DNA of 64,000 nucleotides from an uncultured Planctomycetales bacterium (GTDB lineage Bacteria; Omnitrophota; Gorgyraeia; Zapsychrales; JAHFFX01), in contig CAZTCI010000001.1 of NCBI GenBank assembly GCA_964612665.1, forward strand, positions 508,896 through 572,895. Direction: 5' to 3'. The position numbers and the translations under genes are program-made. This document shows positions 1 through 64,000 of this stretch, in pieces (position 1 is the stretch's first letter; the number at the start of each line of letters is the position of its first letter). The notes under the pieces are model-generated. The model saw only the letters and a program-made list of their open reading frames with translations. It had not been told where the DNA came from and did no database searches.

Positions 1-3000
1 ATGCAGCACACTTCCTAAACTGTAGTAATTGGGAAGCGGTCGCGTTAAAACAGCGGTCAAGAGACCTTCGACCCAGGCGAGGCGAATGTCGACGTGCTCT
101 GTTAAAGAAGTGATTTGATAACCAGGCTGGCTTTTAATAAATTCCCACTGCTGCTTGATTTGACGCACAAATGAAACGACGCGGTCAAACACCGACTTGA
201 TTTCGCCAGCTATATTGTCGTGCTGTCTTTTAATTGTTTCGTTGATCTCTTTAATTAAGTCCATTAGGTTTTCATAACTGAACTCTTCTTTAATGGCCAA
301 TGAACTTTCTCTTTGAGTGGCAGCATCAGTTATCTCATCCCAATAAGACTGCACAGTTTCAGTAATAAGCTCCAGGGCGTTTCTCACATCATGCAAGCTG
401 AATAGCATTACTGCTTCAGTTTCTTTACCTTCTTCTTTATTCTCCGACGGAGGGATCTCCTCTCCAAAAAGACCGGCCACCAAATTACAGAGTCTTTCTC
501 GTCCAGCGATCTTCGGAATACGGATGACCTTACCTTTATAATCTTGGTTAGGTTCAACTTCAGTCCAGTATAAAGAATCTGTAATACCATACCCTCTAAA
601 ATCATAAGCCAGGATATCGTCGTCTTCACCACTTCGAATGATCATGGGATTAGGGAATCCGATTCTTTTCATTTCCACAATCAATTCAATGCCCGCATTA
701 TTCTTTCCCATCTGATTATCCGTCAACAATAAGTCAACGAGTTTTCCTTCTGCCAAAAGCTGATGATACGTTGATAAAGCCTTTTCCTTGTTGGCAGCCG
801 TATATACTTGATAACCTCTTTGTATTAAATCATTGGATATTGTCTCAAGCACGTCTTCGTCGTCGTCAACCAGCAAAATTAAGCGTTTATACGCCTGAAC
901 ATTGGGAGTTAAAATGGATAAAAGAACAATCATCATTAACCAATCTAACGACACAAAAATGCCTAATGTGGCTCTGGACTCCACTCGCGTTGAATTCTCC
1001 AACCCATTGAACCACCGTTCGACAATTAGCTCGAAATTCCGCAGTTTCGGATCGAATTGCGCTCTCATTTGGATCAGAAGCGATTGGATTTCCTCAATAT
1101 CTCTGAGCGAATTCATTCTAAAATCGGCTTCAAGAATTTTTCGTAAGGAATCAATTAGATATTGTTTCCCATCGGGGATAAAGGCCTTAAGTAATTCTAC
1201 GATTCTGGTCCTCGAGAATCCTCTATTCATCAAGCGCAAAACATGTTGGTTATTTAAAAAGGCCACAATATTAATTGCCGCAAGAATGTCGACATCTTCT
1301 AGGAGGAAAAGCATTTCGTTTAGTGAAATAAATTGCCCGGCTATTCTTAAATGCCAACTGAAAGAAGTCTTAAATTCTTCTTTTCTCGGCAGGCGATCCG
1401 CTTTATTTACAATCCGCATAAAACGCGCCAGCGAATTGATGCCCATTAGATAACCATCAAACGGTCCTTGTTTTAAGAGTTGCATTGCGAATATATCAGT
1501 CAAAAACTGCGGCGTAAGATCCTTTGTGTCCGTCGTCGAATAAAGTGGAGAGCTACGATTGAAAAGCTCTCGAAGGAACTCATAATAGGACAACACATTT
1601 TTCTGAATGTCCTGATAATCAGAAACTCCCGCATCAACAGCCAGCGCCACGGCCTGGCCAAGCAAAGCCAAGTACTGCGGCTGGCTGATTCCGACGGGTT
1701 CAGTGAGTCTCCATAAATCAGAAATTAGCGTGTCGACACTTACTGGAATATTATCTACCCCAATTATGTGCTTGAATCGATTGAAGCTGGCAGCGACCAG
1801 ATTCTCATCGTTCCTAGATTTATCCAACCAAACTTTCTGCCACTTTTCAACCGATGAGAAGAATTCCACCTGAACAGCCGCAGGTTGTCCAATATCAGCA
1901 TCTAAATTCTCCTCGAGAATACGACCGTTGCTCAACACCAAATAATTAACAGGAAGCATTCGGATATAATCCAAATACATCAAACGATCCTCATCCCTAA
2001 AATCTTCAATCGCCGGTTCGATGAGAATGATTTGGATCGGTACTTTGAGACCAAACACCGCCTGCATGAGGGCAATAGCAAACTTCTTAAAAATGCAGTC
2101 AAATGCGGTACTGCCGATCAAAAAGACAGTCAATTTCTTGGAGTCTCGCTCTTGATTTTCAATTAAAGATTTCAAAAACTGGGCGGTTGAATGTCGCGAA
2201 TTGCTTGCGTGCCAGCGCTGAATTATGCGGTCAGGGCCGACGGGAGGATTCTCCGATTCGATGGCCGAGGAGAGAATTTTGCAAGGTTGCTGTGCCACTG
2301 AAAGTTCTTTCACGTCAACCGTTTTTTGATTCCACAAAATGGAACGTAAAAGATTGCCTGCTATTTTTGCGGCACTTCCTTTTGGCGAAGCCGAATAATC
2401 ATTAACAACATCGATTCCAATGCCCCGTACCGCCGCGATAGCTCCTACTGATACGAACAAGCCTGTCACAGCGCTTAAAACTGTCGGCAAAATCTGCGCC
2501 AGCATCCATAGGAAGAAGGTTAGAATATCACCGTGGGGTAAAACGATCATTTCATAACTTTCTTCATCCGACGACATAAATAGTTCTTGACCTTCCAACT
2601 CTTCTTCTAACGATGACAGCCCTTGAAACTCCTGCGTCAGATGTTCCCAGCTAAGTGGTATCTGTCTTTCTTGTGCCTGTATCATGACCAACTTTGCTTT
2701 TTCTTCATCCACACCTAATTGTTGAGCCAGGGCTTTGGGATTATTAATTAGCTCGTACCATTGTTTTTCTGTTACTTGTTTTTGCAAACGCCAGTAGCGA
2801 AGTAATTCTTGGGAGTGACCAAATTTCGCTTCCAATAAGCGTTTAACCACGTTTCTAAAAACAGCTATTACCATGTTATAAGTTAACGCGCCTAGGGCCA
2901 TGAGATAAAATGAGAAATGGAAAGAATAAACTGCTTTTGCTTTTGCTTTTGCTTTATCTTTATCCATCTTGAACTCTGCATCGGTAAATGCCAGCAAATC

Positions 3001-6000
3001 TGTGAATATAGAAATTCTGACTTGCCATTGACTGGAAAGTTTATTCCACGCTGTTGGCTTGCCATCAAATGTAATGATTGATGGCAATTCGTAAGATTGG
3101 CCCTGGACTTCTGAAATCCAATATTGTCGTATCCGGGATTTACCGAGAAATGTTTCGTCACTTCCAACAACAACGAGTTCTTCGATCAGTAATATTTCGA
3201 TAAAAACTCCCTTATCTTTCGCATAATCCATAATAATAGCGGCGGCATTCAAGAGACAATCGCCATATTTCCCGCCGAGCAGAACAACCTGAATACCGTT
3301 TTCTTGGAGAAGGAGATCTAAGAATTTATAAATACGCTGACGGTCTTCTTTAGAAGATTCATGAATTTTTTCGGGCTTGGGTTCTTCTAATTCTTGAACT
3401 ACGATCCCACGCTTTTTTAATAAAGTAACCAAAGATTTAAAAATCGGCTGCATCTCTCTTCCCAAATCACCAGAAACGCTACGATAATCCCTAACTTCGA
3501 AAATTCCAATTGTGAGAGACCTGATTCGATTTATAGCTACAAAAGATTCTTGAGATGATGTGTATTGATTTCGGCGTTTTTGTCGTTGAATAATAATAAA
3601 CTTGCCAAATTCAAAGATAACTATGCCCAAAATAATACTAACCATTCCCACAGTAAATCCCAACATCCCGGCCGTTTCTTTGGTGGCCTTTAAATAAATA
3701 ACATCCGCCGATAAATCTTTATGACCACCCACATTGATAATCATCTGCTGTTCATACGCTAAAGAAAGCGCGGCCGCTTCGTTGATTTCAAATCCGGCGG
3801 ATTTGACCTGAGCGATCAGTTGGTCTTTAAGTTCGCCGAGCGGACCAAAGGATTCTTCAATCATTTCACCATTGAAGGAGACGAGATGTTTAGTTGCCTT
3901 AATAATATGTATTTCACCTCCATGGGAAAGGACGTTATAAACCTCAGATAAAACTATGGACGGCCTCGTCGATTCAAGCACGAAACTAAGCAAGGCCACA
4001 TCAAACGTCTCTGGCGCAAACGACAAATGCTGGGCGTCTCCATTCACCCAGAGACCATCGCTTACTGTGTGTTGCACGATGCGTATCTTTGAGAAATTAT
4101 TATCTAATCCAACAACGACATTCCCCTGTCTTCTTAACTTACCGGCGATGCCGCCGGAACCAGTACCTACATCCAAAATACGATGACCGCTCCCAATTTC
4201 CTGCAGATACCAAAACGAGAGCATAAAAGAATTATTAATAGTGTGCCGCAACAAATCCTCCAACGTTATGATGATGGGCTTACGCACGGCGGCAACAGAG
4301 ATCATTACTACAAGCAGCATCCATTTTATTAATCCGACGAACCAGATCATCGAAATCAAAGAATAAATATCTACATACAGCGAATTATATTGGCCTTGTT
4401 TATAATGTTCATTCGCACGCCTGATCAATTCTTCATGGATCCGATCACCAATCGGAATCATCCCTCGCCGGTGATTATCGGCCAAATATCCGAGCGCCTC
4501 TGCCAATGTTTGCGCGGCGATGCCGAAAAATAGGCGGACATCATTTGTGCCCATTATGCGGGCCGCGGGATTGGGCGCTGGGGGTTTTTCACGCGCGATA
4601 AACTGGCGGATTTCTTCCAGGACATTGAAGACTTCGGTGAGTTGTTTGAGTGTCTTGACCGATAAATGCGGTTGCGGTTCAACAAAGACAATTGAGTTGA
4701 CCAAGGCCAGCAGATGGTTTTGAATTTGATATGCATAATTATCCAGGTCTTTTATATTGGTCTGCTCGGCAACATGCATTTCATAATCTAAATCTTGATT
4801 AGGAAGATCAAGGATTTTGATCGACAACAGCCCTTTGTGTTGCATCTGTTCCAAAGCCGTGTACAAGGCGGCCATTGATTCCATGAAACCTTCACCCGAC
4901 GGAATATAAGTTTGATTCTTTAATTTCGGACCTTCGCTTCTCTTATCTTTCTTGGGCACAGACTCTTTCTGCGTGTAAGGTAAGAAAACGGCGCCTAATT
5001 TTTGGTTGTCTTTCTTGCCATAAAGGAAAAATTCAATCGCCAGCTGCGGAAAGACCCGGACCGTTTTGGGCAAAGCATCAATAGAAAATCTTTGTATTGT
5101 GACGTCCGCTTTCTTAATCGAGACATACTTGGGGTCCTTAAAGAAAATGACCGCTTCTCCATAATCCGTTGAAATCAGGAACTCAACCTTTTCGCCGGCT
5201 GCAAGATTTTGCTCAACCGCTTTCAAATTGATCGTCAATTCAGACTGGGAATTCTGTTCAAGTACTTCTTGTTGGGAGATCGGCTGTCGTCGAGGATGAT
5301 AAGAAGCAACGTCGAATGAACTTCCTTCCAGCAGCATAAGGATAGTTACGACCAAATAGATATTTTTGAAAAGTTGGAATGAAGATTTAAAGCGCGACGC
5401 GAAAACAGCAATTAAAACTAACACCGCGATAATTACCCAAAACTCTTGTGAATGAATAAGGGAAAAATTACTTCCCTCATCAACAGCATTCAAATCTCCA
5501 TTCTTGGCTCGAACTTCCCAAGTTTTATCAGCTTGTTGGTAAGAATTCTTTTGAATCGCCTCTCTAACTCTTTGAGTCAAATCATTTTCGTCGATGCCGC
5601 CAACGTCGATCCAATTCACGAAGGCAGCAATAATATGCTCCTGAAATTCCTCCGAACTTGCCGACATCCTCACTCCGATTTCCATAAATTCTTTGGCCGC
5701 CCTTTTGAGTTCTTCAATGGCTTGACTGCGTAATGACAAATCCTCGATGCTTCTCGCCAGCGTCCATCTCAGCTGATTGTTTAAATACCGTATGAACGTC
5801 TTTAATTTCTCCATATCTCCCTCGAGTAACTTAATTTTCCATAATTGATTGGCCAGCCGGCTGATCGTTTCAAATGCCTTTTGCCAGGTCTTTTCCGACG
5901 ATGAAAGCGAAAGACGCTCTGCCATTAAAAGCAAAGTCTCATCCAAATATTTCAACTCATTCGATGGATAAAAAAATAAATAGCTATCGTAATCATCCAT

Positions 6001-9000
6001 GCGTCCCATTGCGTGGCTATGATAAAGATCTCGCTCGGGAACAAGGGCGATATTCAAAACATAATCTCTGAACGGTGCTTTTTCATAACTGCAATTTTTT
6101 TCGTATCTAAGCCAACCATCGAGATTTTCCATCGCCATTGAAAAAGATCCACGAAGTCCCGGGTTCGCCCTCCAAGCAACGATTTTCAGTAAGAGCTCTT
6201 TCAGTTTGTGATTTTCAAGTAACCGGCCCGTCGCTTGTCCTTGCCAGTTTAGTTCTTCCACATTAAACAACATCTGCGCCAAATATTGCGGAATCGAATT
6301 TAGTCGCCCTTCGGTCCCCCAAAGATCCAGGGCATTTGTTGACTGAGGATCGTTCGAGATCGCAGGATCAAATGTTTTGAAGTCCAGCGCCTCTTTGAGC
6401 ATCCATAACGTTAGATCCTCATAAGTAAAATCGGAAAATCCGCCATTACGCAAAGACAACGGCTGCTGTAATTGTTCACTCATAACAAAATAAAGTCCGA
6501 TCAATCGTCGGAGGCCTTGAATCAGCGGCGGGAAGTCAATCGGATAAGTTCTTTCTTTATCAAAGTGCATTCCAATTGTTCGCACATGCAACAAAAAGAA
6601 TATCGATGTCCAGGCGGTTAACCATTGTTCTTTCAGTTGTCCACCTGCCCAAAACCACATTCGTCGGGTTCCTATTTCAAATGGTTCGACATCCTCAAGC
6701 GAAGCCAAGCGCACAATATCCTGATTGGGATGACCATACTTTGATAACCAGCCTCTGGCTTTCCAATACCGACGCAGACAATCGCCGATCAATGAAAGCT
6801 CTTGCTCCGAAAGTGGGAGCAAATGACCATCTCCTGTCTCACTATCCATTCTTTCAGAAGTAGCATTCACAATTAGATAACCTAAGAGCTTTGTGAAACG
6901 TTGACTCTCGTGAGTGAGAGAATCAAAAATGGTTGAAGCATTAGCATTATGCAGGCTATACAAAACATATCTTCTCTGCTTTTCGTTATAATGTTCCGTA
7001 TTCAAATCTATCTTAGAATCTAACGTAAATTCCCACGCAGGTGGAAGTAACATGCCTTGCGAATTGATATACCCTAGTTGAACAAGATCATTAAATAACT
7101 GTGGCAAGTCTTTGTCAGGAACAATCCCCTTAAAACTTTTCAAGCTTACCGCATCATATTGATCGAGGAGGTTTGTCAGTGTTTCGATCCATTGCGCAAC
7201 GGGCCGCGATGTATTCTGAGCATTGGAATCAGTTAAAGTAACTTTCTGCTGTCTGACTGAGAGACGACGCCAGAAACTCTCTCCCCATGACAACTTCAGC
7301 ATCATCAAAATCCCGAAGACAATCAGCGCAAGCCATCCCCAACTTCCTTCCGCACCCGTCGTTGGCCAGAGAATCAGATGGCTGCTCAATTCATTTCCCG
7401 ACGCTGATTGAGCACTCAACATCACGATCCCCATCGCAGCGGCAATCATTCCGCCGCGCAGGCGTCCCCAAAATCCTCGTACTAAGCGAATTGCTAACGT
7501 AACAACGAGACCCGCAGTAATGACGGTCAATAATCGATTGAGAATAGATTGCAAAAGGTTTGAAAAAATAGGGTTGTGCTGCAGGAAGGAAAGAAGCGGA
7601 GTATCTTTTTTGCCGACGGGCGGGGCGTTGGGCTGCATCTTAGCATAGTGCCACACAATCAAAATACTAACGCCAATTAAAATCAATAGATATTGCACGA
7701 GTGAGTAGGTGTCCATGTTGAAAATGTTATTTGTTTTAGTCTCCCGATCAAAACCTCCATCCCGTTCGGCGAGCATCAGAAAAGCCGTCTCGGCGATGTG
7801 CATGTCGCTGATGCCGTGATGCAGATAGATTTTATGCACGCTGCGCGTCGAAAGACCGTTTCTGACGAGGCCCAGGTCCCAAACGCCCTGTCCTAACCGC
7901 AACCGATCACCGATTCCAGCGAGAAACTCCGGCGATGCATCCGCGACGGTAACAACCGGGGTGAACTTCCGTTCAGTCTTTGGAATTAATTTTTCTAATT
8001 GTTCGAATAGATTTTCTCTTCCTAACCGTCCAAGAAGAAGATTGGGGCTCGTCACCACAATCACATTGGCGTAAATGGGATAATTTTTATGAAGTTTCAA
8101 AAGCTCGTCGGACGCGGACAAGGCGGCCTGGACCATAGGACCGATGGCGACGATGTTAACCACATTGTCATCGGGATGGTAATCAGGAAGATGGCTGTAA
8201 TCGACGAGCCGGTAACCGCCTTTGAGAATTTCTGGGCCGAGACGCTTGATGGCGGCGGGTTCATTAAGGCCGGAATAAGTTTTCTGTTCCCGCAACCGCC
8301 GGAACAATCCGCTGCGTTCAACCAACAGGCTCGATGCGCGGATATACACGGCGTTACGCCCGTGGTCATGGCCGGTCAACATAAGTTCAAAGGTTTTTTT
8401 CAATATATAATCTAACTCGTCAAGAAAAGCCGGTTCCCACATAACCGTGTTGGGCATCGCCCGGCCGATGTCCGCCGAGACACTCGATTGATGTTGAGCA
8501 CCGTCGGTGGCCAGCGTTGGGCCGGACGGTGTTCCGACAGCAATAAATTGTGAACCCCAGTACTGGGCGTAAAAAAATTGATCCAGCGCCCGGCGGAATA
8601 AAAACATATCATAGATCGTAACAACCGGAATCAAACGCACGCCAAACAAATCATAAGCCTTGCCAAAAGCCGCCGCCAAGGTCACGGCGTTCATTTCTGT
8701 AATGCCAATGCGTAAATGATTTCCCGCAAATGAATCGGCGCTGACAACACCTTGAGTGGCGCCAGGAGCAATCATTCCCGTAGATGATCCAACATCCGGA
8801 GAAATCGTGACCAACCGCGGCGCTATTTTCTGCCAGAAGCGATCGTCTTCGGAAAGGTCCGCCGCCGCCGATTGACTGAGTAGACCTTTCACCCTATTAA
8901 TCGACATACCCAGATATGTCTGCGTTGGAATTCTCCCGCGGGCCGGTGAATAAAGTTTTTCCGGCCAGATTTGATTCTTTAATTCTGCTTCAAACGCCGC

Positions 9001-12000
9001 GCGGTTTGCATCGATCATTTGCTGCGCTTCGGCGGCTTCATGATCTAAACGTGAACGGACATTCTTAAGTGTCTTAAACTCGACGGAAGTTTCATTGAAA
9101 TTGGGGAATGGATTATCTTGCGGCATGCCTAATTCGTTACGGACCTGCGCCAATTCTTCGGGAGTCAATAACTGCGAATGGTTTCCTTCCTGACCAATCA
9201 TCGGTCTTAGACCCCAGCCTTTGATCGTATGCGCAATAATTACCGTCGGGCGATCGCTGGCGCGGGCTTCGCTCAAGGCTTTGATTAACTCAACCAAATC
9301 ATGGCCGCCCAAATCGGTAAAGAGCTCATAGATTTTTTCATCGCTGTATTTCTTCAAGAACCGCTTTATTGGCCTTTTCCTTTCCAAAGAGAGTTTCTTA
9401 TTCTTATCATCCAAGGGAAAAGGCCTAATATTGACTTTTGTTTCTTCCTTTGGATTCACAAAAGTCAATAAAGAAGAACGTTGTTCGATCATCCAAGCGC
9501 GGATTCCGGCGCCGTTTTGAGCGGAAAGATTTTGGTAAACTTTCTGGTCGATTGTTTCCATAACTTTCCTAAAGACACTTCCCCCTCGTCGGGCAAAAGC
9601 CGCTTGCAATTTTCGGCCCCAGCGCAGTTCAACGACTTGCCATCCAGCCGCCGCGTACATTCCGCGCAGTTGATCCAATTTCCAGTTTTCGGTATTTCCG
9701 TCGAGTGATTGGCGGTTGTAATCGACAATATGCGTCACGCGGTCCAAGTTAAATTCTTTCACTAACGTCAGAATCTCCCGCAGGTTTCCTTCTTCAGATT
9801 CAGCATCACCCAAGACCGCGAAGAAATGCGAATCAGAAACCGCATGGCCATGCGCCTTGAGCCATTTCCAAACAACGTTAAGTGCTAAGGCAACCGCCGG
9901 CCCTATGCCAACCGAGCCCGTCGGAATTTTGACGCCGTCCGGGTCCGCCATTCCCGGATACGCGTGCAGGCCTGGTTTGTCTAATTCATCCGTGTTGACT
10001 TCCGGATGCTTGGCGATGAAGGCGGCTTTTAATTCTTCAAGTTCTTTTAAGACTTCTGGCGCAAGACGGCCCCTGATATCTTCAGCCCTGAAATCAACCG
10101 GCAGCCGGACAGCGTTATCACGCAAACGATAAAGTGTATCGACGGGTAATCGACCTAAAAGATATTGAATGGCATGATACACCGGCGCGGCGTGCGGTTT
10201 GTGGGCGACAAAATCATGACCGCGCATGACAGCCAGCTCGAGGGCGATCATAATGTGCAATGCAGACGCGGATGCAGCCTGGTGCCCGCCGGTTTTAGGC
10301 AGTTCATATTTAATTTTATTGGCTTCATCAATTTCACCGATTGAAATCCCAAGCGCCCGACGGGCGATGCTTTCTAAAGCTTCGATGTCCTTCGGTGCAA
10401 ATCCTTCCGGAATTTTATCATTTCTATTTCGGGGAGGCCGGTGTCCGGATGAGCTCATTGCAACAATCATCATCGTGGACAAGAACAACGCAGCCACATG
10501 TCCACCTACGAAGTAGGACACAGCCAATAGTCCATCCAGTGCCAGCGCGATGAGGACAAGCGCAGTTGCAAATACGGTGGAGAGGTTTTGATCTGAGCAT
10601 TCTTTTATTCCATTTTTTGTTTTTTTGGTTTCCTGAGCTGAAAACTTTTTCCACCAGGCAAACGTTTCACTCAAACCCGTCCCAATATTCTTTTGTCGTC
10701 TCAACTTGTTGACAATCAAAATGATTAATGTTATGTTGGCGTCGAAAAGATCATTGATCAATAATTGCGTGGCCCTCTTTGAAAGATGGGAGAATCGTAA
10801 GTGAAGATCTGGGAATTTGAATGGGACAACTGGAATATTGAGCATATTGCTAAACATTCCGTAAAATCTCAAGAGGTAGAAGAAGCTTGTTATCGCCGCC
10901 ACGTCGCTAAGAAAACTAAAGATGACATTTATCTTGTCTATGGTCAAACGTATTCTGGCCGTTATCTTTTCATCGTTATTAAATATAAATCTAAAGGAAT
11001 TGTTTACCCTATAACCGCTCGAGACATGACTGATTCTGAGCAGAGATTCTTCCTTAAACGGAGGTAACATATGATTAAGAAGTCTTCTGTAATCCCAAAA
11101 TTTAAGAATGTCGCCGATGCGGCTGAATTCTTCGATCAACATGATACGACCCAGTTTCTCGACGAATTGCAACCAGCGCATCTTAAGTTCCCTAAGCCCA
11201 AGCATCTTTTGATCACCTTGAAACCTAAACAAATAACGAGGCTCAGACGCTTGGCCGACAAAATGGGTAAACCTTCCGATCAAATTGTTGAGCAATGGAT
11301 CACCCAAAAACTTGCCGAAGGGTAATGATCTGCCCAATGTGGCACGGCTCAATTTCTTTACAATCTCTTTAAAAACGCCTTTCGCTTTATCTGAGGATTT
11401 GGTTCGAATCGTCAGTATCAACAGCAACACATCAACGGCCAACACAAGGAACATCAAATGTAATCCCGGTCCCGGAACAAAATATCCTTTAAACACAACC
11501 ACCGGACGTTCCTCATCAGGCAGAAAACCTAATTCCTCGCGGATCTCCTCGGGAGATATTCTTAAAATATGTATGGGCTGAGGATGATCTTCAAAATATT
11601 TTAAGAACAGGCTTGTAATCGTTTGTCCGTTATCAGAAGCAATATGAAGACGGCCCAGAATAAAAAACGTGTCTTTAGCAGCTTTTCGGCCGCGCGATAA
11701 GATATTGATCATATTGGGGAACATGAATGGTTCCCTTAGGTCAATAGCGAATCTAAAGTTCTCCGAGACATTGATCCCTTTCAAAATTTCTTGAACAGCG
11801 GGCTCGGCCTGGCCGACGACATGATTTTCGCGTTTGGCTCTGGCCATGAGGGCTTTTATAAAAACAACAGTCAAATCACGCCAAGTTGTCAAGTCTTTAA
11901 GCATGTCCGCTGAGTTATCCGGGGGCAATGTTACGATCGCGGAAAAAACGAGACTGTTCCGGGTGTTGTAATAAAGAGAAATGCGTCTGTATAACGTTGT

Positions 12001-15000
12001 AACAGGGTGCATATAGCCGGGAGGTAACCATTGGGCCAAATCCTGCCACGTGGGAAGGATGAACAAATTCAACGCAGAATGAATAAATCCTCTTTTTAGC
12101 GATTGCAGTTTATCTAAAGAAACCTTCGAAGGGTCGGACAGCCATTGTTCATATTGCAGATAGTCATCTAATCGGGTGGCCAATTCATAACTCAAAATCT
12201 CCTCGACGCCAAACAAATGTCCTTTGGTACTACGGTTAAAATGGGTCGACACATACCACAGTTCGTCTTCTTTAAACCGGGCCACTCCTTCGACACCCGC
12301 AAAGATTTTCTTGCGTGCGGCCAGGAGATGGATCTCTTCTCTAAATAATTCATGCTCGGGATTGGTATGGTTTTCCCCGATTAAAAACAATCGCGGTGCG
12401 GATTCGGGTTTCAGGCGGACAGCGAGGAAAATTAATGTGCTCAATAAAAACGTCAGGTTTAAACTATTATCGAAACCATGGACGGCAATAAAGAAGCTCT
12501 TGAAATTTTCAGTCTTTTCCAATTTTCTTGACGACAATTCTTTATTGATCTTGTTGCGTTCTGATGACACATAGGCCAGGACAGCATCCAAAAATTTTCG
12601 ATGGATTGAATCTGTGGGTTTTACAATACGGCCATATTCCGCATATAACGATACAGCTTTATCAAAGGAAACTTCCCAACGGAAGCTGACAGTCTTTTGC
12701 CAAACAATGATTTGGCCCCGCCCGACAGATGACAAGAAGGCATTGGCTTTCTCGTCCGACGGGTTTTTCCGCGCCTGCAGCAAAACACACTCTCCATTAA
12801 ATGGAGGATAAAGAACCATCCGGTAAATAAAACCCAAATCACCCCCAAATTTTTGTTTCCTAAATAAATTTTCCAGTGCCTTGAAATGATGTTGTCGGTT
12901 GGAAATATCTCCCCCTCCTTTAGGAAGATATCCGGCAGCAGCATTAATCTTTGACCAAATTGCTTGAACGGCTTTTTGTTTGACATTAAATCTTTCCGCT
13001 ATCTGTTGATCACTTAGACCTTCAACGAAACCATATAAAATATTCAATTGTTTTTCCGTAAATACTGGTTTTGCCACATCGAATTTTGGAAACGGAGGCC
13101 TCCGGTCGACAAGTCCTAACTTTCTCGCTTTTTTGATAAGTTCCCTTCGCTCCGACGTCACAGCCAACACTTTATAAAGTCTCGAAATCTTTGAGCGTAT
13201 ATTGATTGCCGGTGAACTCAGCGCCTGGCCGATCTCAATCGTAGTATTTCCTTTATTAAGCAATCTTAAGATATGAAGTTCAAGCTCACTTAGGATGAAC
13301 GCATGTTTTTTTGCGAAAAGTTGTTTAGGTTTAACCAGCCGCTCAGACGATCCGAAAATCGCCACGCGGTATTCTTCATGCTGATTGAAAAATTTCCAAA
13401 GAAGATAAGGGTAATCATTATTAAAGTCGCGGGGTCCGCTTTTAATTTCCAGATTTAAAAGTTGATGAATTTGGCTCCTTGACTTGCGGATGGTTTCGGA
13501 CCCTGTCTCAAGCTGAGCGGCAATGTCCTTGTCATTTAATCCAGCATAAAGGCCTTTTAGAATGGCTATGTGTCGCGAAGAGAGTTCTTCGACGGACGCA
13601 CAAGATTGAACGCTGCGCGCTATGGCCGCGAGGACAGCGACAAAGATAAAACTGAAATTGGATAAATAATCCGATGGATTTGTAAGGATAAAAAAGTTAT
13701 GCTCTCGCTGCAACCCTGGCAAAAGACTTTGATTATCTCTTTTACGAAAGACTTCAAAGGGTTGAACAAACATAAACTGCGCGCCCGCTGTTCCCCTGCT
13801 AGTTTTAAAAACTTCACTTTGCCTAATCTGATTATTCAACGCATCGAGCGCTTCTTTAAGCGGTTGCGAGGTAATCAAATCTTTCCAGCCTCTTAAGAAG
13901 CCTATCTGTTCGAGCGCGCCAAAGATCCATGGTTCTTCATCAAACACAATAATGGTATCACTAGACCTTAAATCCCTTAATGTATTAAGCAGCCTAACCA
14001 CGACTGGTTGATCGATCCAAAAAGTTCCTTTTAGAATAACAGTCACACTTTCTTGTCCAGCTCGACGTAGAAATTCGACAATATCATCCAGCGCGTTGTC
14101 GATGTGTAACGTTTCCTTAGGGTAAATTCTATTTAGCAAAATTTTTTCTGGCTCCATAAACTGATTCACGAATGATTGCAGCTCCTTATAAGCTCTTTGC
14201 CGGTCTTCATGGTCATAGAGCCGGTCAATTCCGAGGACCAATTGGGCCGGCAGCTCCGCCACAAAAATGTCAACGCCTATTGCGGGATAAATCCGATACG
14301 GTTTTAAGAGACCAACCGCCGCTAAGACTTCTAACTCTCGCCGCCAGGCCTCGGCCAATGGCCCATAATCAACGCTTCCCCGCGATGCCAACCGTCTGCC
14401 TTGTTCTTCAACTATCATGGAAATCGCTTGAATCTGCTGGAGAATTTCTTCTTCGGAAATTATTTTGCCTCCGGTCCGTCTTGTGCTCTTTCGTAACGCT
14501 CGAACCAAAAATATAACCAGCGCGCTAATTGAAATTAGAGCAGCTGCGGCATAAATAAAACCAGTATCAACTAACATCGACGATGATTCTGGATATTTCG
14601 CGTCATAAGTTTTCGCTAATTGATACAACGTCCGCTCTACACGGTCTTTAAGACGGAGGAATTGCCTTTCTGATAGGGTCAATGTCACCATTATCTCTGG
14701 CCAGGAGCATGTCAGAATATGATTATTATTGTTTTTCTCAGCGAAATCACTTTGGCTTGTATCACTGACCGCATCCATAAGGACTTCCAGTTCTAATAGC
14801 GCTTTGACAATTATCTGACTTGTTTCTTCACCTCGACGATAAACATCGGTCATATCTTGTTTGGTTGGCTCCAACCTTTCATCCGTTGAAGGTTCCGGAA
14901 CATTTTCAAGTTCCGTCTCAAAATCAAAAACTTGCTGCTCCAGTTCTCTTCCCTTCTTAACAGCCCAATCCAAGACCGACGCTTTATAAAACAAAAGTAC

Positions 15001-47013: not shown

Positions 47014-47061
47014 TAGCTCATGGAAAAATTCCTTTGTGTCTTGAACGATGACCTTCCAACT

Positions 47062-50000: not shown

Positions 50001-53000
50001 ATTGATTCATAACAGTCAAGACACGATCCATTTCTTCTGTTTGAGCTTCGATAGCCGCTGACAAACCGTTAAGTATGTATAAAATCCAACGGAATTCTGG
50101 ATTATATTGCTTAGTCATCGCTGATACTATTGCCTTCGCCTGTCGAAGCGGCGCTCGAGCCAGATCTATTTGATCATTTGAATAGTGACTCCAGGCCAAG
50201 TACACGTAAGCAGCCACTTTTTGCGGTTCTAAAATATTTAATGATGTGATCGACGTCCAGCGTCTCACAGCTTCATCATATTCTTTTTGTTCAAAACTAA
50301 TTCTAGCCTGAGCGATTGCGGTCAAAGACAACACGCGGCCCTTTATGCCCAAATCGGAATACTGCTGGCTCCATGCTTTCAGAAGCCTGATTCTCTCGAC
50401 GGCAGATTCGAATTTCTGTTCCGTAATATCTATGATGATTCTGTAATAATTGGCCAGAATGTCCAACTCGATATAGCTAAAGTGGGGATGAAACTTCTGG
50501 GTCAGCATTGGCTGATAATGTGTCACATACCGATTGTTGATAGCGAGCGCCTGCACAAACGCTTGATTAGCTTCTACATAATGTTGCTGATCAAAATGAA
50601 TCATGCCTTTAAACAACGTAAACCATGCTTGTTCCAAGGAATCATCAGGGAATTTTTTGATCGCTTGATCGGCGGCCTGCAAAGCGGCTTCAAATTCTTC
50701 AAAAAGGGCCAAATGTAAGACCTTTCCAGTCAACTGCACAGACATGTCATCATCTTTTTCTGTCCTTTGTACCAAAACGCTCTGTTCCTGACGTGACAAC
50801 CATATCTCGACGGCATTTTGCACTTTCGCGACATCCAGGTTTTTCACTCTCGTCGCTTTCGAAAGAACAGCGCGTACCGTCGCTTCGTTTTGAATGCCAG
50901 CGACCAATGTTCTTAACTCCTGATCACTCGGCTGACCGCTTGGCAGATTCGGCAAAACATTCCGCAAGGCTCGACGCAGAGACGCATAATCTGTTTTGGG
51001 TCTGCCGGATGATATGGCCATGGCGAATATGAACATCAACAAGATAACCATCTCTAAAGACACAGGGTGGGCTTGCATCTGGTTGTTACCGTCGGCCAAT
51101 CGCATTGATCGGTTGTGTTGCGGATGTTTTGTTGCCAGGTTATTCTTTTGTGGACTGCCACTGACGACTTGTTCTGCCGCGATAAGACATTTCGTTCTGT
51201 CTTCTTTAGGTAGATACAAACACTTCACAACCAAATCAAGATACTGTCTGGCCAGCTCTGGATTATCAGAATTACTGCTCATTTGTCTAGTACGCTCGAG
51301 TACTATCCCCGCGAGAATGAGGGTTCCTTGTGGCCCTGTCCATAGAATGCGTCTGGCTTCCACGTTTTCTAATCTTTCTTCCGGTCGGAGAATTTGCCGC
51401 ACAAGAAAGCGGCCGGATTCAATCCAATCCAGCTCATCACGATTCCAGGCAATACTGCCATCCGCCGCCGCGTTCACGGCCCGGTAAGCGCGATTAAATG
51501 AGGTGTCTTTGCTATACCAAGGAATATTGCTCAAGATAATTGACCCGATGAAAAACACAACAACAGTCCTGCCGGTCATATTCAACAATCGTCTTATCGA
51601 TTCTCGCCATGACCATCCTAGCATCGTCGAGGGCCTCGCAAATTCCCGATGACTTTCGAAGTAATCAGAAAGCAGTAACCACACAACAAAAACCACAAAC
51701 AACCAAACACCATAGTGCTCAAAGAACGGCTGTATCAACTGTATATCGAAAAGATAATTCTTGTTTTCGACAACTTTGAAAATCTTCCAATCATGAGTTG
51801 AATAAGATCCTAAAGGATCTGTGCCGATAGACCCTTGGGCCACTTCTACCAATTGCCGTCGGGCTTTGTTAAGCAGTGTATTTAATTGATGCAGGTAGAC
51901 CTGAGTATCTTGCCATTCGATTGAAGATCTTTCTCCAGTTTGTTTATCGGTAACTTCCTCATAGTGCGTATACCATCCGACAATAAAATAACCGTTTAAT
52001 CTTAATATCCGCGCGATTGAATCAAGCATGCGTCTTTTAACGTCTTCCTTAATATAAGGACTCGAAAAAATGCTCATGGCAACGATTACAGCCACTGACT
52101 CTTTGCCTAACAAACTGTTTTCAAAATAAGCTTGAGCCCGTGGAAGGACCTGGAGTTTAGGCTCTCGGGCTGCACGGTTCTGCCAAATTTCATGGGAATT
52201 AATTTCTAGCGGATTGGCATCGGAATCATCGGAGGGTTGATAGATGATCAATTGATCGATGTGACAAAGAAGCATATCCTCCCATGGGATCTGATAAAAG
52301 TCTGACGGATTAGCGCTGGGTCCGATTGAAACCGCCCGCTCCCATCTGGATTTTTCAAGAGCGTTAATGGCGTTTCGCGCCCGCTGATAATACTCGGGGA
52401 CAAACCCGCTCGCCAAAAGTTCGCGTATACGAGTTCTCCTCTGCATTAGATCAATCCGCCTTTGCCGTCGAATTTCTTCCTGAAACTCTAAAATTGAACC
52501 TCGAGGATGTGCCCCTGTTATCCGTGCCCAAATATAATTCGCCCCAAGAACGAGGAAACCAAACACAATAATCAGGATTATTACTGCGGTTGAGTTATCA
52601 GGGATAACATTCTGCTGAATGAGAACATCCGTGATCGCTCCGGATGAGATGGCGCGATTAACTTGGGCGGTACGAGGAGAAGGAATCGGGATAATCTGCT
52701 CGCGCCATGCCATCAGCGGTTGATTAAACTCCACATTTGGATTTCGGAGTTGGACGGCTTCCCACATCATCTGTCTGATCTCTTCCTGCCTAAACTGACC
52801 ATCAAAATAATTATGTGAAATACCGTTGAGGTTATGAAGCCGCAATAAGGCGTTAACAAAATTCATAAATAAAGAGTTGTTACCTTTTATCATAAGGTTC
52901 ACGGCACGATTATTCAGATGTCTAGAAGAACCGATATATCCATTGATAATAAAATCAACGATTTCAGCCAATCTCAAATCGGAGGCTTCCGGAGTTAAAA

Positions 53001-59000: not shown

Positions 59001-62000
59001 CTTGAGGATGACGTCGCTTCGCCTTCGCTTTGGATATCGTTTTCCGCCCATGAGGATATCCTACAAATTTTTGATCACGAATCACGCGCCGGACGGCTTT
59101 CCCCTGCGTTTCTCCTCGCTGATTCTTTCCGGTGATGAACTGAATCGCACTTCGCCTTTTATTCCAGATGTTATCCGAACTGATTTCAACCGGCAAACTG
59201 ACTCTGATGGCACTGTTGGGCCAGATGCCTTCGGAGGTATCAATTCCAAAAGACAGCCGGATGATTTCAGCGGCCGCCGAATCTTTCCCTTGCAACTCCG
59301 CATATCTTAAACGCATCGCCTCAGCCTCGGGAGTATCGATCTCACCGCGGAAAACCTTTCTCAATTCCAAATCTCGCGCATTCAACACGACCGCTTTTTG
59401 CTTAATCGCCAGAACCTCCTTTTTCCTGGCCTCAGGCAGAAGCAAGATGGTTGACAACGGAACATTGAAAGCTGCGGCAAATTGAGGCAACGCACTGATC
59501 GAAAGCGTGCCGTCTCTCATTTGCTTCTGAAGATTTTGATAAAACATCCCGATCCGCTTGGCAAAATCTTCTTCGGTTAAATCGCGTTCCAGGCGAAGGA
59601 CCAGAAGATTGGCGAAGATTAAGCGTACAAATTCTTTTCCATCCGTCGGGCCGATGAACGGATACTCGGCTTCGTCTAAATTATCCAAAAAGAAAAGCAA
59701 TGGATTTCGCTGCAAGATATTCGCTATCTGGACAATTTTCGCCACCTGCGTGAATTGCAAATTATTTTCAATCCGGCGAATAGAATTCCCCGACATTCCC
59801 AGTTTTGTCGCGAGCCCTTGACGGGCTAAATCTGATGACGATGCTTCACGATATTTTTCAACCTGAGCGCCCACCCATTGACCATAGCGTTCAATTTCTT
59901 CCAATTTCTCGGGAGTGAAAATACTCGTCCTCGACTTCCTATCCACTCTGGCCATCCCGGCGAGGAACATCAGGTTAAGACCAAGGGCGGTGAGGGATAG
60001 CGATGAGAACAACATCCCCATTCCCGTCGATAATCCGGAAATGATTTTGGCGAGGGCGAGAACGGTGATCACAACAGGGGTCAATGCGACAAGGCTCAAA
60101 CGGCTTTCGGTGATCGATGGAACTGGATCGAATCTCGCTTCTCGCCGCGGAAACTTTTTGCGCAATTTCTCTAAAATCGATTCCAGCGTTTCATTCTTCG
60201 GTAATCTTTGGATAGTAAGGCAAAGGCGGCCTTCCTCAACTCCTTTTAATACCTCGACGAGGTAACACGCGGAGGGTGGCTTGAGGATCTTTCTTAAAAT
60301 GAATGGGAGTCTTTCTTTATCTGATAACGTCAGGCCGGGCGCCGCTTTAATCTCCTGTAAAATTTCTTCGAGCGTGCCCTGGAATTTGAAGGACTGAATT
60401 TTGAGGTGTGGATTTTCTTGTGTCCCAGCATCCGGCGCAGAGGTTTCGAGATAAACATTGATAGAACTATCATTGGAAGGGACCATCGCGGATTCGTTCG
60501 GCACCGTGACAAGGAAACGAACAACCGCCGCATGCAGTGCTAAACTCAACATCAACGCCAGGATATTCACTTTGCGGTCGGATAAAATTCTCAACGAAGA
60601 TGCAAAGATACGCGACATCCGCTGCGTCGGTGACCGGATCATGCCCGCCACAAAATACAAAACGAGGAACAATCCGATGATAAGGATGCCCGCCCAAGAA
60701 AGATTATTGAATCCTTCTCCAATGAAATAGGCCTTCAGTTTTTCCTGCTGGGCTTGATCCAAATTCGATTCTGATCTCACGCGGATCGGCAACAGATTTT
60801 CATGCTGGGCAATTTCCTTGAGCATGCCCAAGGCAGCTTCTGATTCGACTGATCCCTTCTTTAGTAAACCATCTTCACCTTGCAGTTCATTGTGCTGATG
60901 AAGGAAAAACATTTGATAAATCGTCCCGGCAAACAAAGCGCGCTGAGTAAACTCTGGATGCATCGTGGCCGCGGATTTAAATATGCGCTGCTCTTCTGTT
61001 TCTTCAGACTCCGATGAAGGCGATGAATCATCGCGGGAAACTTGATAGGCTCTCCAATCTTCCACAATAAAGCCGACATGGACAAATTCGTTCTCAAAAT
61101 AAAATCGCGTTGACTTACCGTCGGAGTCTGAAATTTCTATGTCCTCATACTTGACACCCAAATGCGGTCGCAACATATAGTGTTGTACCTGGACGTAAGT
61201 ATCAATAAGCACTCTGACAACCTTGAGTAAATTCTTTCTGGCTGTAAGAATTTCCAATCCAGCCAGATCGCCCTCACTTTCCATCTTTGCCTGCAGTTTC
61301 GCAATGGTTTCCCCCACACCTTCTTTCTTATCCAGCATATTTTTGGTTGTATTCAGGATAATTTTTCTATTGTATGGATAACGTAAGTGCTTTTTGAATA
61401 CCTCAAAGCCGTTGGGGACCAATCCAGTCTTGTTGTAATCTTCAATAAATTCGTGCCATATTGCAAGGGCCTCATTAATCACCTCCGGAATTTCATAACT
61501 CGACCGCGGTCTTCTAACATGCGGCAGATTCTTATTGCGAAAGGCGGACAAAATTCCAGTCTTTTTCTTTTTTAATTTTGGATCAACCCACTCCAACTCT
61601 GGGAACAGTTGCAATCGTTTTAAAAAGAATAAATAAATGCTCATCATAAATGGACCAAGATCCATATCGTGATAATAGGAGGTAATCAAAACCATAGGTT
61701 CAATGCCAAAAATGATCATGGCCATTTCTCGAGCAATAAATCTGGCTCTATTTAACTGAGTCGCCAGATTTTTATTAAATGTCATCGCTGGTTTTAATAA
61801 ATTTGAAATATTAACTCTACAATAAATCAATGCTTCAAATTCTTCATCTGTAGAAATGGTCTTTATTTTTTGAATGATCCCAACGTTGATTTTCTCCGCT
61901 CCCTCAAAACGAACGATTCTCGCTCTCGCCATGGCATATTCTTGAAGCATTTCCACAGCCAGCATGGATATGGCGATGCGGCCACTTAGCTCATCTAGAT

Positions 62001-64000
62001 ATTCCTGTAGCTCAATGCCCTGGCTAATCGCTTGCTTTTCAAGTTCGTTTCTTACTAAAGGATTGATTTCATCGAGAGTCTTAAATTTCTGTTCAATAAC
62101 ATCATCATCAAATCCAAGGAAATACAAGATACGCTCCAAAGCAGCACGCAAAACGTCAAGAGGGGCAAATGAATCTGCATCGTCGAGATGACGCAGCGAT
62201 TCTCTAAAATCCTCAACGTCAATGAATAAATTCATCGACGAAGAGAAGAGTGTCAGTGTGGGGGCAAACCGGATGGTGTCTTCAATGACCTGAATGGCTT
62301 CTTCGACCAATGGAGGAATGGAATAATAACGATCAAAACTGGACTCATCGGCGACTTTCTTCTTTTGAAGTTGATTCAACTTAGTCGTGAAGTCTTTTTG
62401 CTGGGCCTTGAATTGTGCGGCGAGCTCTCCATATTGTAATTCCAAAGTGTTAATCCGGGTTTTGGTGGCATCAGAAACCTTTTGTTGATCTTGCTTTATG
62501 ATATTTAATAATCCTCGGCTCCATCGCATCAAAACTTCGCATTTTTCCACAAATCTTTTCTGCGATTCAATAATGGCATTCACATCTTGTAAATCTGTTT
62601 CGGTGATTGTCGGCTGACCATGTCTCAAAATTATTAAGAACTGGCCTGCTTGCATTTCAAAAGCTTCAATTTCCAACGCCACGATCGCTTCATACCCGGC
62701 GGTGATGACTTGTTGAACAGAAGCGGTCAACTGCGCAAATTCATTTTGAATGACAGAAATATCTTCGGTCCAGCCATTCTCAATCCCCGTCGCAATTTCT
62801 TTTAACAAAGCAACCGCGTGGCCGATTGATTGCAAATGATTCTTAACTTCTGTCTGCCTCCCTTCGATCACATCCATTTGATCCAAAACGTCTTTTTGTT
62901 CGCTCCAGGGCTTTGTCGGATCGATATGGCGTGTCAGCTGCACAACAGGCCAGCTGGCCACGACAGTGGATAACGTTTGAATTTCCGTCTGAGTTCTTGC
63001 GATCAGTCCGGAAATTGAAATCTTTTCTTGTGACTCCAAACGAAATGGATCTCTCACCAATACATCCATATCCTTCGGTTCCGACGGATTAGCCGCCTCC
63101 AACGCTTCTTGAATCAACGCGCTCACCGCGGATTCATCCATTTCCAGAATTTTTCCGGCTTCTTCAATTTCCAACGACGCCACGGCGATCAAATCTGAAT
63201 CCCCTTCGGTATTTTTATAACTCAACAATCGGCTGCCCCATAATGTAAATTCATGTTCAATCAGCGTGCTTAAAAAGATCGACTCGCTGTGATCGATGAT
63301 GGATTTTAGACGTTGGAATTCCGATGAGCTCGGATTGCGAAAGGCCTCGCGAATGCGTTTGGCGGCGCGTCGTTCAACAAATGCGGCTTCTTCACCTTCC
63401 ACATATTGCCTGAGGAAGAACTGTTCGACATCCTCAATACTCTGCATGGCCTTGACGCTTTGAACCAATGCCTCAGATAAATTCGCATTTGGCATTGAAT
63501 CTCCATTGGTCTCAGAGATATCTTCAACCTGGATATATCTCAACAACCGCTCATCCAATCGACGAATCATGTCGACTTCACTCACGGGATCGAGAATATC
63601 CCCGAGCACTCTCATAAGAATATCATTTATTCCTATCTTGGCGCGGGGGCTGTTAATGTCTTTCCTAAGCGTGTAATACAATAAAGTGATCTCCCGTTGG
63701 CGCCATTCGTATTGGAAAAAAATGCGATGGTCGCTCCACGGCAATTCCTGAATATGAGTCTCTGCGAAAATACTTGTGAACGCCTTTCCGATACTTTTCG
63801 GCTCGATCATCTGATTAACCCCACTGATCCAACGGGCGAGTTGATCCAAAATTTGATTTGTTTGATCGGCTGTCAATTCGTTAAACATCTGGCGATAAAA
63901 CGCAAGCGAATACCGCAGGGTTAATGGTAGAATCGCCGTCGTTCGAATCTCCGACGATTCATGGACCTGACCATTTCCATTATTTTTGATCGATTCTTTT
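47062..64000 (-). CDS. Giant ORF-A, 5'-partial: the N-terminus lies beyond 64000 and the ORF ends at TGA 47062-47064. It is in the same frame as ORF-B and may be the same gene if the TGA is read through or recoded. At least 5,646 codons lie in the window.
   Basis: Aligned-frame scans at 47.1-47.4, 50.0, 52.0, 55.1, 58.1, 61.6, 61.7 and 63.66-63.96 kb found no stop. The translation is protein-like, with TM helices, an XRE HTH at about 59.7 kb and coiled-coil segments. The C-terminal peptide before the stop reads ...LIILIQFLIWSWSGNGHGGPG*. Confidence 0.75.
59700..59830 (-). other. XRE-type HTH in ORF-A.
   Basis: LARQGLATKLGMSGNSIRRIENNLQF. Block 59761-59820 was translated directly. Confidence 0.5.

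Follow-up and report, generated by a model that had tools for sequence, protein, structure and literature searches.

What kind of gene can keep one reading frame open across 64 kb of DNA, and what would its product do? These questions are raised by the 64,000-nucleotide stretch analysed here (hereafter, the window), whose minus strand is occupied from position 1 to position 64000 by an internal segment of a single open reading frame (ORF) of 21,333 codons, with both start and stop lying beyond the window. Very probably, these 64 kb come from the interior of one real, very large minus-strand gene of at least 21,333 codons, the product of which would be a membrane-tethered mosaic scaffold.

A six-frame stop count found no TAA, TAG or TGA over the 21,333 consecutive codons of the minus-strand frame whose codons coincide with plus-strand positions 3k+1 to 3k+3 (for example, 63997–63999), versus 849–1,344 stops in each of the remaining five frames, where the longest open runs span 114–326 codons. 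If stops occurred at the rate of ~6% per codon seen in the remaining pair of minus-strand frames, a stop-free 64-kb frame would have a chance of ~10^-573. Residue i of the translation corresponds to window positions 64000−3i to 64002−3i, and the coordinates of all features described below, which lie on the minus strand unless stated otherwise, were verified by back-translation. The count bears out the original prediction, made from the letters alone, that the whole window is a single stop-free minus-strand ORF, to be abandoned if in-frame stops appeared every few hundred codons; it also agrees with its statement that the other minus-strand frames hold only short ORFs, none of which reaches 150 amino acids (aa). 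The lone TGA that the prediction placed at 47062–47064 was a misreading: the plus-strand CAG at that site is an in-frame CTG (Leu), and the nearby TCA at 47061–47063 is out of frame. Reassignment of a stop codon is irrelevant to the frame, from which all three stop codons are absent.

Where the same prediction spoke of a "gene or gene pair" of more than 21,000 codons, the length holds, with a single ORF of at least 21,333 codons and at least 64 kb, and the pair is unnecessary, as no stop interrupts the window. Proteins of at least 10,000 aa have been classed as large and those of at least 30,000 aa as giant (West-Roberts et al. 2023); with 21,333 stop-free codons in one uninterrupted ORF open at both ends, the gene is longer than the 10,000 codons of the large class. 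Its suggested ranking with the largest giant genes known from bacteria was overstated: the lower bound of 21,333 aa belongs to the large class, and published giants measure 39,678 aa in the case of the type "archaeovorin" of Velamenicoccus archaeovorus LiM (West-Roberts et al. 2023; Seymour et al. 2023, PMC10066038), 85,804 aa for the largest protein in West-Roberts et al. 2023 and up to 147,155 aa in a survey of 18 samples that yielded 3,650 proteins of 10,000 aa or more (Nielsen & Lui 2026, bioRxiv 10.64898/2026.06.07.730766).

Besides being open, the minus-strand frame is coding and evolves under purifying selection, the latter following from the ratios of nonsynonymous to synonymous substitution (Ka/Ks) of four internal paralog pairs (0.61, 0.28, 0.29 and 0.19). 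Its GC content at the three codon positions is uniform, at ~0.51, ~0.35 and ~0.48, respectively, in each 500-codon sample along the ORF; the GC content of the window, 44.7% overall, stays between 0.42 and 0.48, and its GC skew is uniformly negative on the plus strand, with no discontinuity indicative of a chimeric join. Moreover, the start-to-start spacings of all nine DNA direct repeats are multiples of 3. These properties bear on a rival that the original prediction had itself named, namely that a chimeric, frame-corrected or synthetic sequence, produced during assembly or consensus calling, mimics one ORF. Giant genes are indeed sensitive to assembly and polishing errors (West-Roberts et al. 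2023), and the collections searched (GTDB representatives, IMG/VR and JGI metagenomes) returned no match; however, such errors break ORFs and do not make them (a point also made by West-Roberts et al. 2023), chance would hardly leave 64 kb free of stops, codon bias and GC skew are uniform, Ka/Ks is below 1, duplications are in frame, and diverse domains retain their catalytic motifs, with one 887-aa stretch being 48% identical to a natural protein (P0152, see below). An artefact is thus extremely improbable.

Signals that would divide the window into smaller units were sought at the nucleotide level. The 64 kb contain no tRNA genes and no Rfam matches, and between 1 and 60 kb the numbers of sigma-70-like promoter sites (36, 26 and 28 found versus 35.7, 28.3 and 31.6 expected) and of intrinsic-terminator-like sites (30, 21 and 20 found versus 21.4, 22.3 and 19.0 expected) are at shuffle level, in keeping with the earlier observation that neither intergenic space nor promoter nor terminator is visible. 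The 30 terminator-like hairpins at positions 1–20000, compared to 21.4±5.0 (~1.7 standard deviations), are distributed over both strands, include none that is strong and were not considered significant. Only 2 of the 523 in-frame ATGs have a core resembling a Shine–Dalgarno (SD) sequence upstream, a lower fraction than in the out-of-frame control, and for want of an enrichment the hypothesis of internal starts was rejected.

On the plus strand, antisense ORFs of 157–307 aa are found at 20245–21168, 902–1453, 50996–51487 and 25721–26194. Antisense plus-strand ORFs (up to 307 aa) gave no Pfam or other family matches and were set aside as shadows of the coding frame. The plus-strand frame that shares the codon boundaries of the minus-strand ORF (3k+1 to 3k+3) has 849 stops, versus 906 and 1,222 in the other two plus-strand frames, as expected for such a shadow.

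What does this frame encode? A hydropathy scan detected 49 transmembrane (TM)-like 19-mers with a mean Kyte–Doolittle value of at least 2.0, compared to 8.5±2.2 in identically processed shuffles, and 28 at a threshold of 2.3, compared to 2.4±1.6 in matched shuffles. An estimated ~50–75 putative TM-type helices, equivalent to ~1 per 300–400 aa, occur singly or as hairpins over the full length of the protein and are separated by soluble stretches of ~100–1,200 aa. Pfam and NCBIfam domains, which cover ~10–15% of the protein, are of at least 11 distinct types and form a non-repetitive mosaic without tandem repeat arrays; among them are the receiver, methyltransferase, AceE-type E1 and LuxR helix-turn-helix (HTH) domains that had been read by eye in positions 1–13,800, all of which were recovered by the two libraries. 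All recognisable cassettes are cytoplasmic-type modules with intact motifs.

One element of this mosaic is a divergent SecA-type ATPase motor (41965–43710; residues 6764–7345) matched by Pfam SecA_DEAD and P-loop_SecA, which is followed by a TM-like segment at ~residue 7435. As in canonical SecA, the Walker A motif (DTSAGKT, with the GKT signature) of the first nucleotide-binding domain (NBD1), a literal DEAD box as Walker B and NBD2 can be aligned to solved SecA structures, the NBD2 match reaching E=7e-9 with PDB 1m6n. Unlike canonical SecA, to which it is 21–26% identical, the motor sits inside a chain that exceeds 21,000 aa and has no detected helical scaffold, wing or C-terminal domain; in the Pfam scan, no SecA scaffold/wing domain (SecA_SW) was found around it. 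Because its NCBIfam secA match (E=1.5e-10) scores 40 bits, versus a full-length cutoff of 800, the motor, judged by sequence, is not a SecA orthologue.

Relatives of the motor are correspondingly distant. A word-indexed search of 5.8 billion proteins with the SecA region gave no match and, with a motor profile, only three canonical SecAs; an exhaustive HMMER search of 1.84 billion representatives returned only weak SecA-family matches (best E=1.5e-11, 24% identity). The ~600-aa motor can be aligned over its full length, at 23–25% identity, to those of P0001 (1,932 aa; Logan), P0013 (5,059 aa; a partial protein of a Candidatus Omnitrophota bacterium, NCBI MFA5339993.1) and P0033 (6,657 aa; JGI, with 25 TM-like segments ahead of its internal motor), which are considered fragments of giant genes because each nearly fills its contig. 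Canonical SecAs score about as well, and no homology to the three fragments was found beyond the motor. The order in which an HTH precedes the motor was rejected as a common arrangement, as it is not present in these relatives. Cysteine is strongly depleted in the window protein (35 of 21,333 residues, 0.16%), a property common to the SecA-motor giant fragments (0.10% in P0001, 0.14% in P0013 and 0.39% in P0033).

The most distinctive local feature of the window is its concentration of ~13 DNA-binding HTH domains, consisting of ~9 of Xre type, three of GerE type and one of sigma-70 region 4 type. Proceeding along the protein, an Xre-type HTH at 59695–59880 (residues 1374–1435) is followed by a weaker second one (~residues 1464–1519), this region being matched by Pfam (HTH_3 E=1.5e-6, HTH_26 E=0.009) and by a hidden Markov model (HMM) built from the ORF's own HTH copies. 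Two more belong to the copies of a recent duplication (45073–45282, residues 6240–6309, and 44074–44280, residues 6574–6642; Pfam HTH_3 and HTH_19), and the sigma-70 region 4-type HTH maps to 31987–32109 (residues 10631–10671; Sigma70_r4_2 E=2.5e-9). Single Xre-type domains at 28777–28971 (residues 11677–11741; HTH_3 E=6e-7) and 26050–26250 (residues 12584–12650; HTH_3 E=3e-5), both also recognised by the own-copy HMM, precede a tandem array of three to four Xre-type units at 17098–17808 (residues 15398–15634), where two stretches match HTH_31 (E=1.4e-17). The own-copy HMM places these units at residues 15406, 15457 and 15568, with a weak one at 15517, and they are 36% identical by self-BLASTP. 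Three GerE/LuxR-type units are found at 12955–13587 (residues 16805–17015; GerE E=5e-16, three stretches). A head-to-tail Xre array inside a membrane-anchored protein is unusual, as Xre-type HTHs normally act as dimers of single HTHs.

Two-component modules complete the regulatory inventory. A histidine-kinase core, consisting of a region resembling a dimerization and histidine phosphotransfer (DHp) domain followed by HATPase_c (39211–39816; residues 8062–8263; HATPase_c E=2e-22), contains N, G1 (DNGPGI) and G2 (GTGQGL) boxes; it can be aligned to kinase structures from the DHp onward (PDB 8u4x, E=1e-17) and matches NCBIfam AtoS (E=2.5e-29) at the level of domains only. A response-regulator receiver at 577–879 (residues 21041–21141; Response_reg E=3.5e-10) carries the acidic pair in LLVDDDED and a candidate phospho-acceptor Asp in LLLTDNQM. 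Tetratricopeptide (TPR) repeats are located at 50131–50712 (residues 4430–4623; Pfam TPR_2, TPR_16 and TPR_14), with a sub-threshold match to NCBIfam PEP_TPR_lipo.

How could such a gene have come to its present size? Sensitive self-BLASTP identified ~20 pairs of paralogous segments, most of which are old (for example, residues 20–626 and 1861–2463, ~24% identical), and a recent in-frame tandem duplication of ~1 kb is evident at 43957–45669, both by self-BLASTP and as DNA repeats D1, D3 and D7 with spacings of 1002, 990 and 999. Its copies (residues 6111–6347 and 6441–6681) are 76% identical at the amino-acid level (75% over 241 aa by self-BLASTP) and 87% at the nucleotide level, have a Ka/Ks of 0.61, include one Xre-type HTH each and lie directly upstream of the SecA-like motor. 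In-frame duplication of segments, in old as well as recent events, thus accounts for at least part of the growth of the gene. A repeat such as the one at 43957–45669 is of a kind that assemblers could collapse or expand.

Three copies of a 46-nt motif at 32668–32713, 33496–33541 and 34093–34138, which are 74–96% identical in nucleotide sequence, have an internal palindrome (CCCAACC[C/T]CCGGGGTTGGG on the coding strand) and encode SSPT[SP]GVGKVEKL[SF]A directly ahead of a TM helix. Since the flanking paralogous protein is ~30–37% identical, the motif points to gene conversion on a local scale or to a constraint acting on the nucleotides or on an RNA hairpin.

A second mode of growth is suggested by a complete E1-like thiamine diphosphate (ThDP) enzyme at 7753–10413 (residues 17863–18749; Transketolase_N, Transket_pyr and PDH_E1_M), which sits exactly between two TM clusters (residues 17809–17848 and 18764–18906). 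The cassette matches the E1 subunit of Escherichia coli pyruvate dehydrogenase (PDB 1l8a) with E=2.4e-28 and retains the ThDP/Mg motif (LGDAESEEGN...VDYNRQSLDG); its NCBIfam aceE (TIGR00759) score is 158 bits versus a curated cutoff of 860, short of a full-length assignment. It represents a distinct E1/transketolase-like subfamily. Over 894 aligned positions, it is 48% identical to its closest relative, free-standing P0152, and it spans nearly the whole of its homologs (residues 11–894 of P0153, 926 aa, and 386–1237 of P0152, 1,428 aa). P0152 is encoded within an ordinary multi-gene neighbourhood of a metagenome-assembled genome (MAG); ahead of the shared region lie a signal-like helix at the N-terminus and an extension of 385 aa to which no function is assigned.

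A scan of JGI metagenomes with an alignment of the E1 subfamily detected at least 600 relatives. All 80 of those retrieved are free-standing, in frames whose median size is 818 codons and the largest of which has 1,268; in total, each of the 81 relatives examined is free-standing. Members of this widespread family are encoded by genes of ~820–950 aa, and its function appears uncharacterised because they fall well short of the cutoffs for aceE, 2-oxoglutarate dehydrogenase, transketolase and Dxs. Because the relatives are all free-standing and the cassette corresponds to roughly their entire length, a normally independent E1-like enzyme gene seems to have been fused whole into the giant frame; no vestigial start was found at the junction. 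Taken together, the fused cassette and the in-frame duplications indicate that the gene may have grown by gene capture as well as by segmental duplication.

Two further regions carry signatures of cofactor-dependent enzymes. A class I S-adenosylmethionine (SAM)-dependent methyltransferase is encoded at 3874–4200 (residues 19934–20042; Methyltransf_11 E=1.5e-14) and has motif I as ILDVGTGSG. A Rossmann motif for binding of flavin adenine dinucleotide (FAD) or NAD(P) is located at 20302–20490 (residues 14504–14566; Pfam DAO and NAD_binding_8), where only the dinucleotide-binding N-terminus is recognisable (PDB LkcE, E=2e-4 over 48 residues).

The same cassettes admit the reading that the frame is a polyprotein or "stop-less operon", that is, a chain of once-independent genes whose products are freed from a giant precursor by proteolysis, through a protease encoded in the frame itself or a partner one, or arise from internal starts. 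The E1 cassette approximates an entire free-standing protein (from ~residues 5–11 to ~894 of 926-aa homologs) placed exactly between TM clusters, kinases, receivers, HTHs and methyltransferases are normally separate proteins, and West-Roberts et al. (2023) suggest that giants may be cleaved by C39 or S8 peptidase domains located close to their N-termini. Yet SD-like cores upstream of in-frame ATGs are scarcer than in the control, the E1 junction retains no start, promoter-like sites occur at chance level, and peptidase domains were not found in the window by Pfam and NCBIfam scans, making a precursor of this kind unlikely.

How does a single gene encoding a membrane-tethered mosaic, the favoured reading, compare with giants of other kinds? 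Extreme gene length is the sole feature it has in common with repeat giants and megasynthases, such as the adhesins of Chlorobium chlorochromatii, the RCC1-type giants of Oscillospiraceae and nonribosomal peptide or polyketide synthases. Unlike these, the window has neither tandem repeat arrays nor adhesin, RCC1, condensation, ketosynthase (KS) or acyltransferase (AT) domains, and Tandem Repeats Finder reports one trivial 21-nt repeat, while self-BLASTP yields no more than ~10–20 paralogous pairs; repeat-adhesin and synthase readings were rejected on the basis of repeat scans, self-BLASTP and all domain scans.

There is a close resemblance to the TM-only multi-enzyme and signal-transduction giants of Pfam Module 1 described from Omnitrophota by Nielsen & Lui (2026), whose catalogue of domain architectures, comprising 916 proteins, classifies 46% as TM-only "membrane-anchored cytoplasmic-domain" proteins. 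Like them, the window protein is non-repetitive, tiled with many Pfam families and equipped with domains of cytoplasmic types, and it carries PF08241, PF02518 and PF00072 (methyltransferase, HATPase_c and receiver), which recur in the catalogue, as well as PF07517 (SecA_DEAD), which there defines an architecture cluster of 20 proteins. Its TM density of ~1 per 300–400 aa is comparable to that of a 122,534-aa giant with 331 helices, the TM-only giants reaching up to one helix per 370 aa (Nielsen & Lui 2026). It is also, as many of them are, a singleton at the sequence level; this is a weak criterion because 80% of the sequence clusters formed by 5,761 long proteins are singletons (Nielsen & Lui 2026). 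Unlike Module 1 giants, the window is rich in HTHs (~13) and has a complete E1-like ThDP enzyme, and the GNAT, HAD, HD and sugar-metabolism modules went undetected in what is only part of the gene. Neither HTH domains nor an E1/transketolase module is mentioned in the main text of the two giant-gene papers (West-Roberts et al. 2023; Nielsen & Lui 2026).

Giant ORFs have been described in Omnitrophota (Seymour et al. 2023, PMC10066038), and numerous TM regions together with a divergent SecA_DEAD domain lacking scaffold and wing are features of giants reported by West-Roberts et al. (2023). With archaeovorin in particular, the window shares numerous TM regions, a divergent SecA DEAD motor without scaffold or wing, methyltransferase, HATPase_c and TPR domains, a paucity and divergence of recognisable domains and poor overall conservation. 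The two differ in that no beta-helix filament was detected in the window, whose domains point to cytoplasmic regulation and not to extracellular cell-wall degradation; nor is there sequence similarity beyond the motor, for which 23–25% identity is observed to the Omnitrophota fragment. All testable architectural features of this class are present: the ORF encodes more than 10,000 aa, TM segments are numerous, the SecA motor lacks scaffold and wing, and the domain mosaic is non-repetitive. Homology to known giants beyond generic domains is limited to the ~600 aa over which the motor aligns. The window gene is a sequence-orphan example of a well-documented kind of giant gene, which is best documented in Omnitrophota.

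Several observations weigh against this interpretation and have to be set beside the evidence in its favour. TM segments were called by a hydropathy scan and not by a dedicated topology predictor, so that topology and sidedness are not established by them, and at least two of the calls, inside the SecA P-loop and the Rossmann fold, are false positives; an attempt to derive sidedness from TM parity was dropped on account of such calls and of HTH domains falling at both parities. About 85–90% of the protein has no recognisable domain, and an AlphaFold2 model of a dark N-terminal module (residues 1–640 plus its paralog) was of unusable quality, with a predicted local distance difference test (pLDDT) score of 41 and a predicted template modelling (pTM) score of 0.28. 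The glycosyl transferases and hydrolases, NUDIX, HEAT and peptidase domains of archaeovorin were undetected by Pfam and NCBIfam in the part of the gene that the window covers. Close relatives are absent from the protein collections for the regions queried, and a query in which the 1,500 aa from each end of the translation were joined had no counterpart in GTDB r232 representative genomes, IMG/VR or JGI metagenomes. Finally, when genomes were scanned with the motor alignment, the matches were all canonical SecAs, which came from many phyla and were 21–26% identical over the full motor; being approximately equidistant from all of these, the motor carries no taxonomic signal.

The last point leaves room for a real gene from a lineage other than Omnitrophota, be it another phylum of the Planctomycetota–Verrucomicrobiota–Chlamydiota (PVC) group or Actinobacteriota, to which the analogy with predatory or episymbiotic Omnitrophota would not apply. 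The window contains no taxonomic marker. Proteins of at least 10,000 aa are known from Elusimicrobiota, Verrucomicrobiota, Planctomycetota, Actinobacteriota, Myxococcota and Margulisbacteria, and the fact that some actinobacterial giants combine SecA_DEAD with CheY-like domains (West-Roberts et al. 2023) is a further point against an assignment to Omnitrophota. On the other side, TM-rich mosaic giants with SecA_DEAD are by far commonest in Omnitrophota, and P0013, one of the full-length relatives of the motor, is annotated as belonging to that phylum. A GC content of 44.7% is atypical for most Actinobacteriota. By analogy, the source is most likely a bacterium of Omnitrophota or of the PVC type; an origin in Omnitrophota is moderately probable, and a different lineage is possible but the less probable of the two.

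How might such a protein work? Translated as one polypeptide, the chain would be threaded co-translationally into the cytoplasmic membrane, possibly with the embedded SecA-like ATPase helping its own chain to be inserted or exported, a role that West-Roberts et al. (2023) have proposed. TM helices and hairpins would then hold ATP-, SAM-, ThDP- and FAD-dependent enzymes at the cytoplasmic face, together with DNA-binding and two-component modules, and the product would function as a membrane-tethered scaffold for multiple enzymes and signalling. By analogy with V. archaeovorus, its probable role would be in a lifestyle associated with a host or prey. A bolder idea, and a long shot, is that the ~13 HTHs, including the sigma-70 region 4 type, constitute with the kinase core and the receiver, interspersed between membrane anchors, a "regulon in one polypeptide" that would either tether chromosomal DNA to the membrane or release its HTHs as transcription factors by proteolysis regulated through host contact. 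If true, this would be a signalling architecture so far undescribed for giant proteins, which are usually read as extracellular adhesins or cell-wall degraders.

In a wider context, the window does not open a new category, given that proteins of 10,000 aa or more with such an architecture had been catalogued in their thousands by 2026. Genes of more than 60 kb are a test of how far transcription, translation and membrane insertion can go, and this one provides a clean case of a free-standing enzyme gene that appears fused in frame between membrane anchors, alongside a recent in-frame duplication, both of which are informative about the growth of such genes. The all-cytoplasmic content predicted for the window favours, for some giants at least, a membrane-anchored cytoplasmic scaffold over an extracellular adhesin or degrader.

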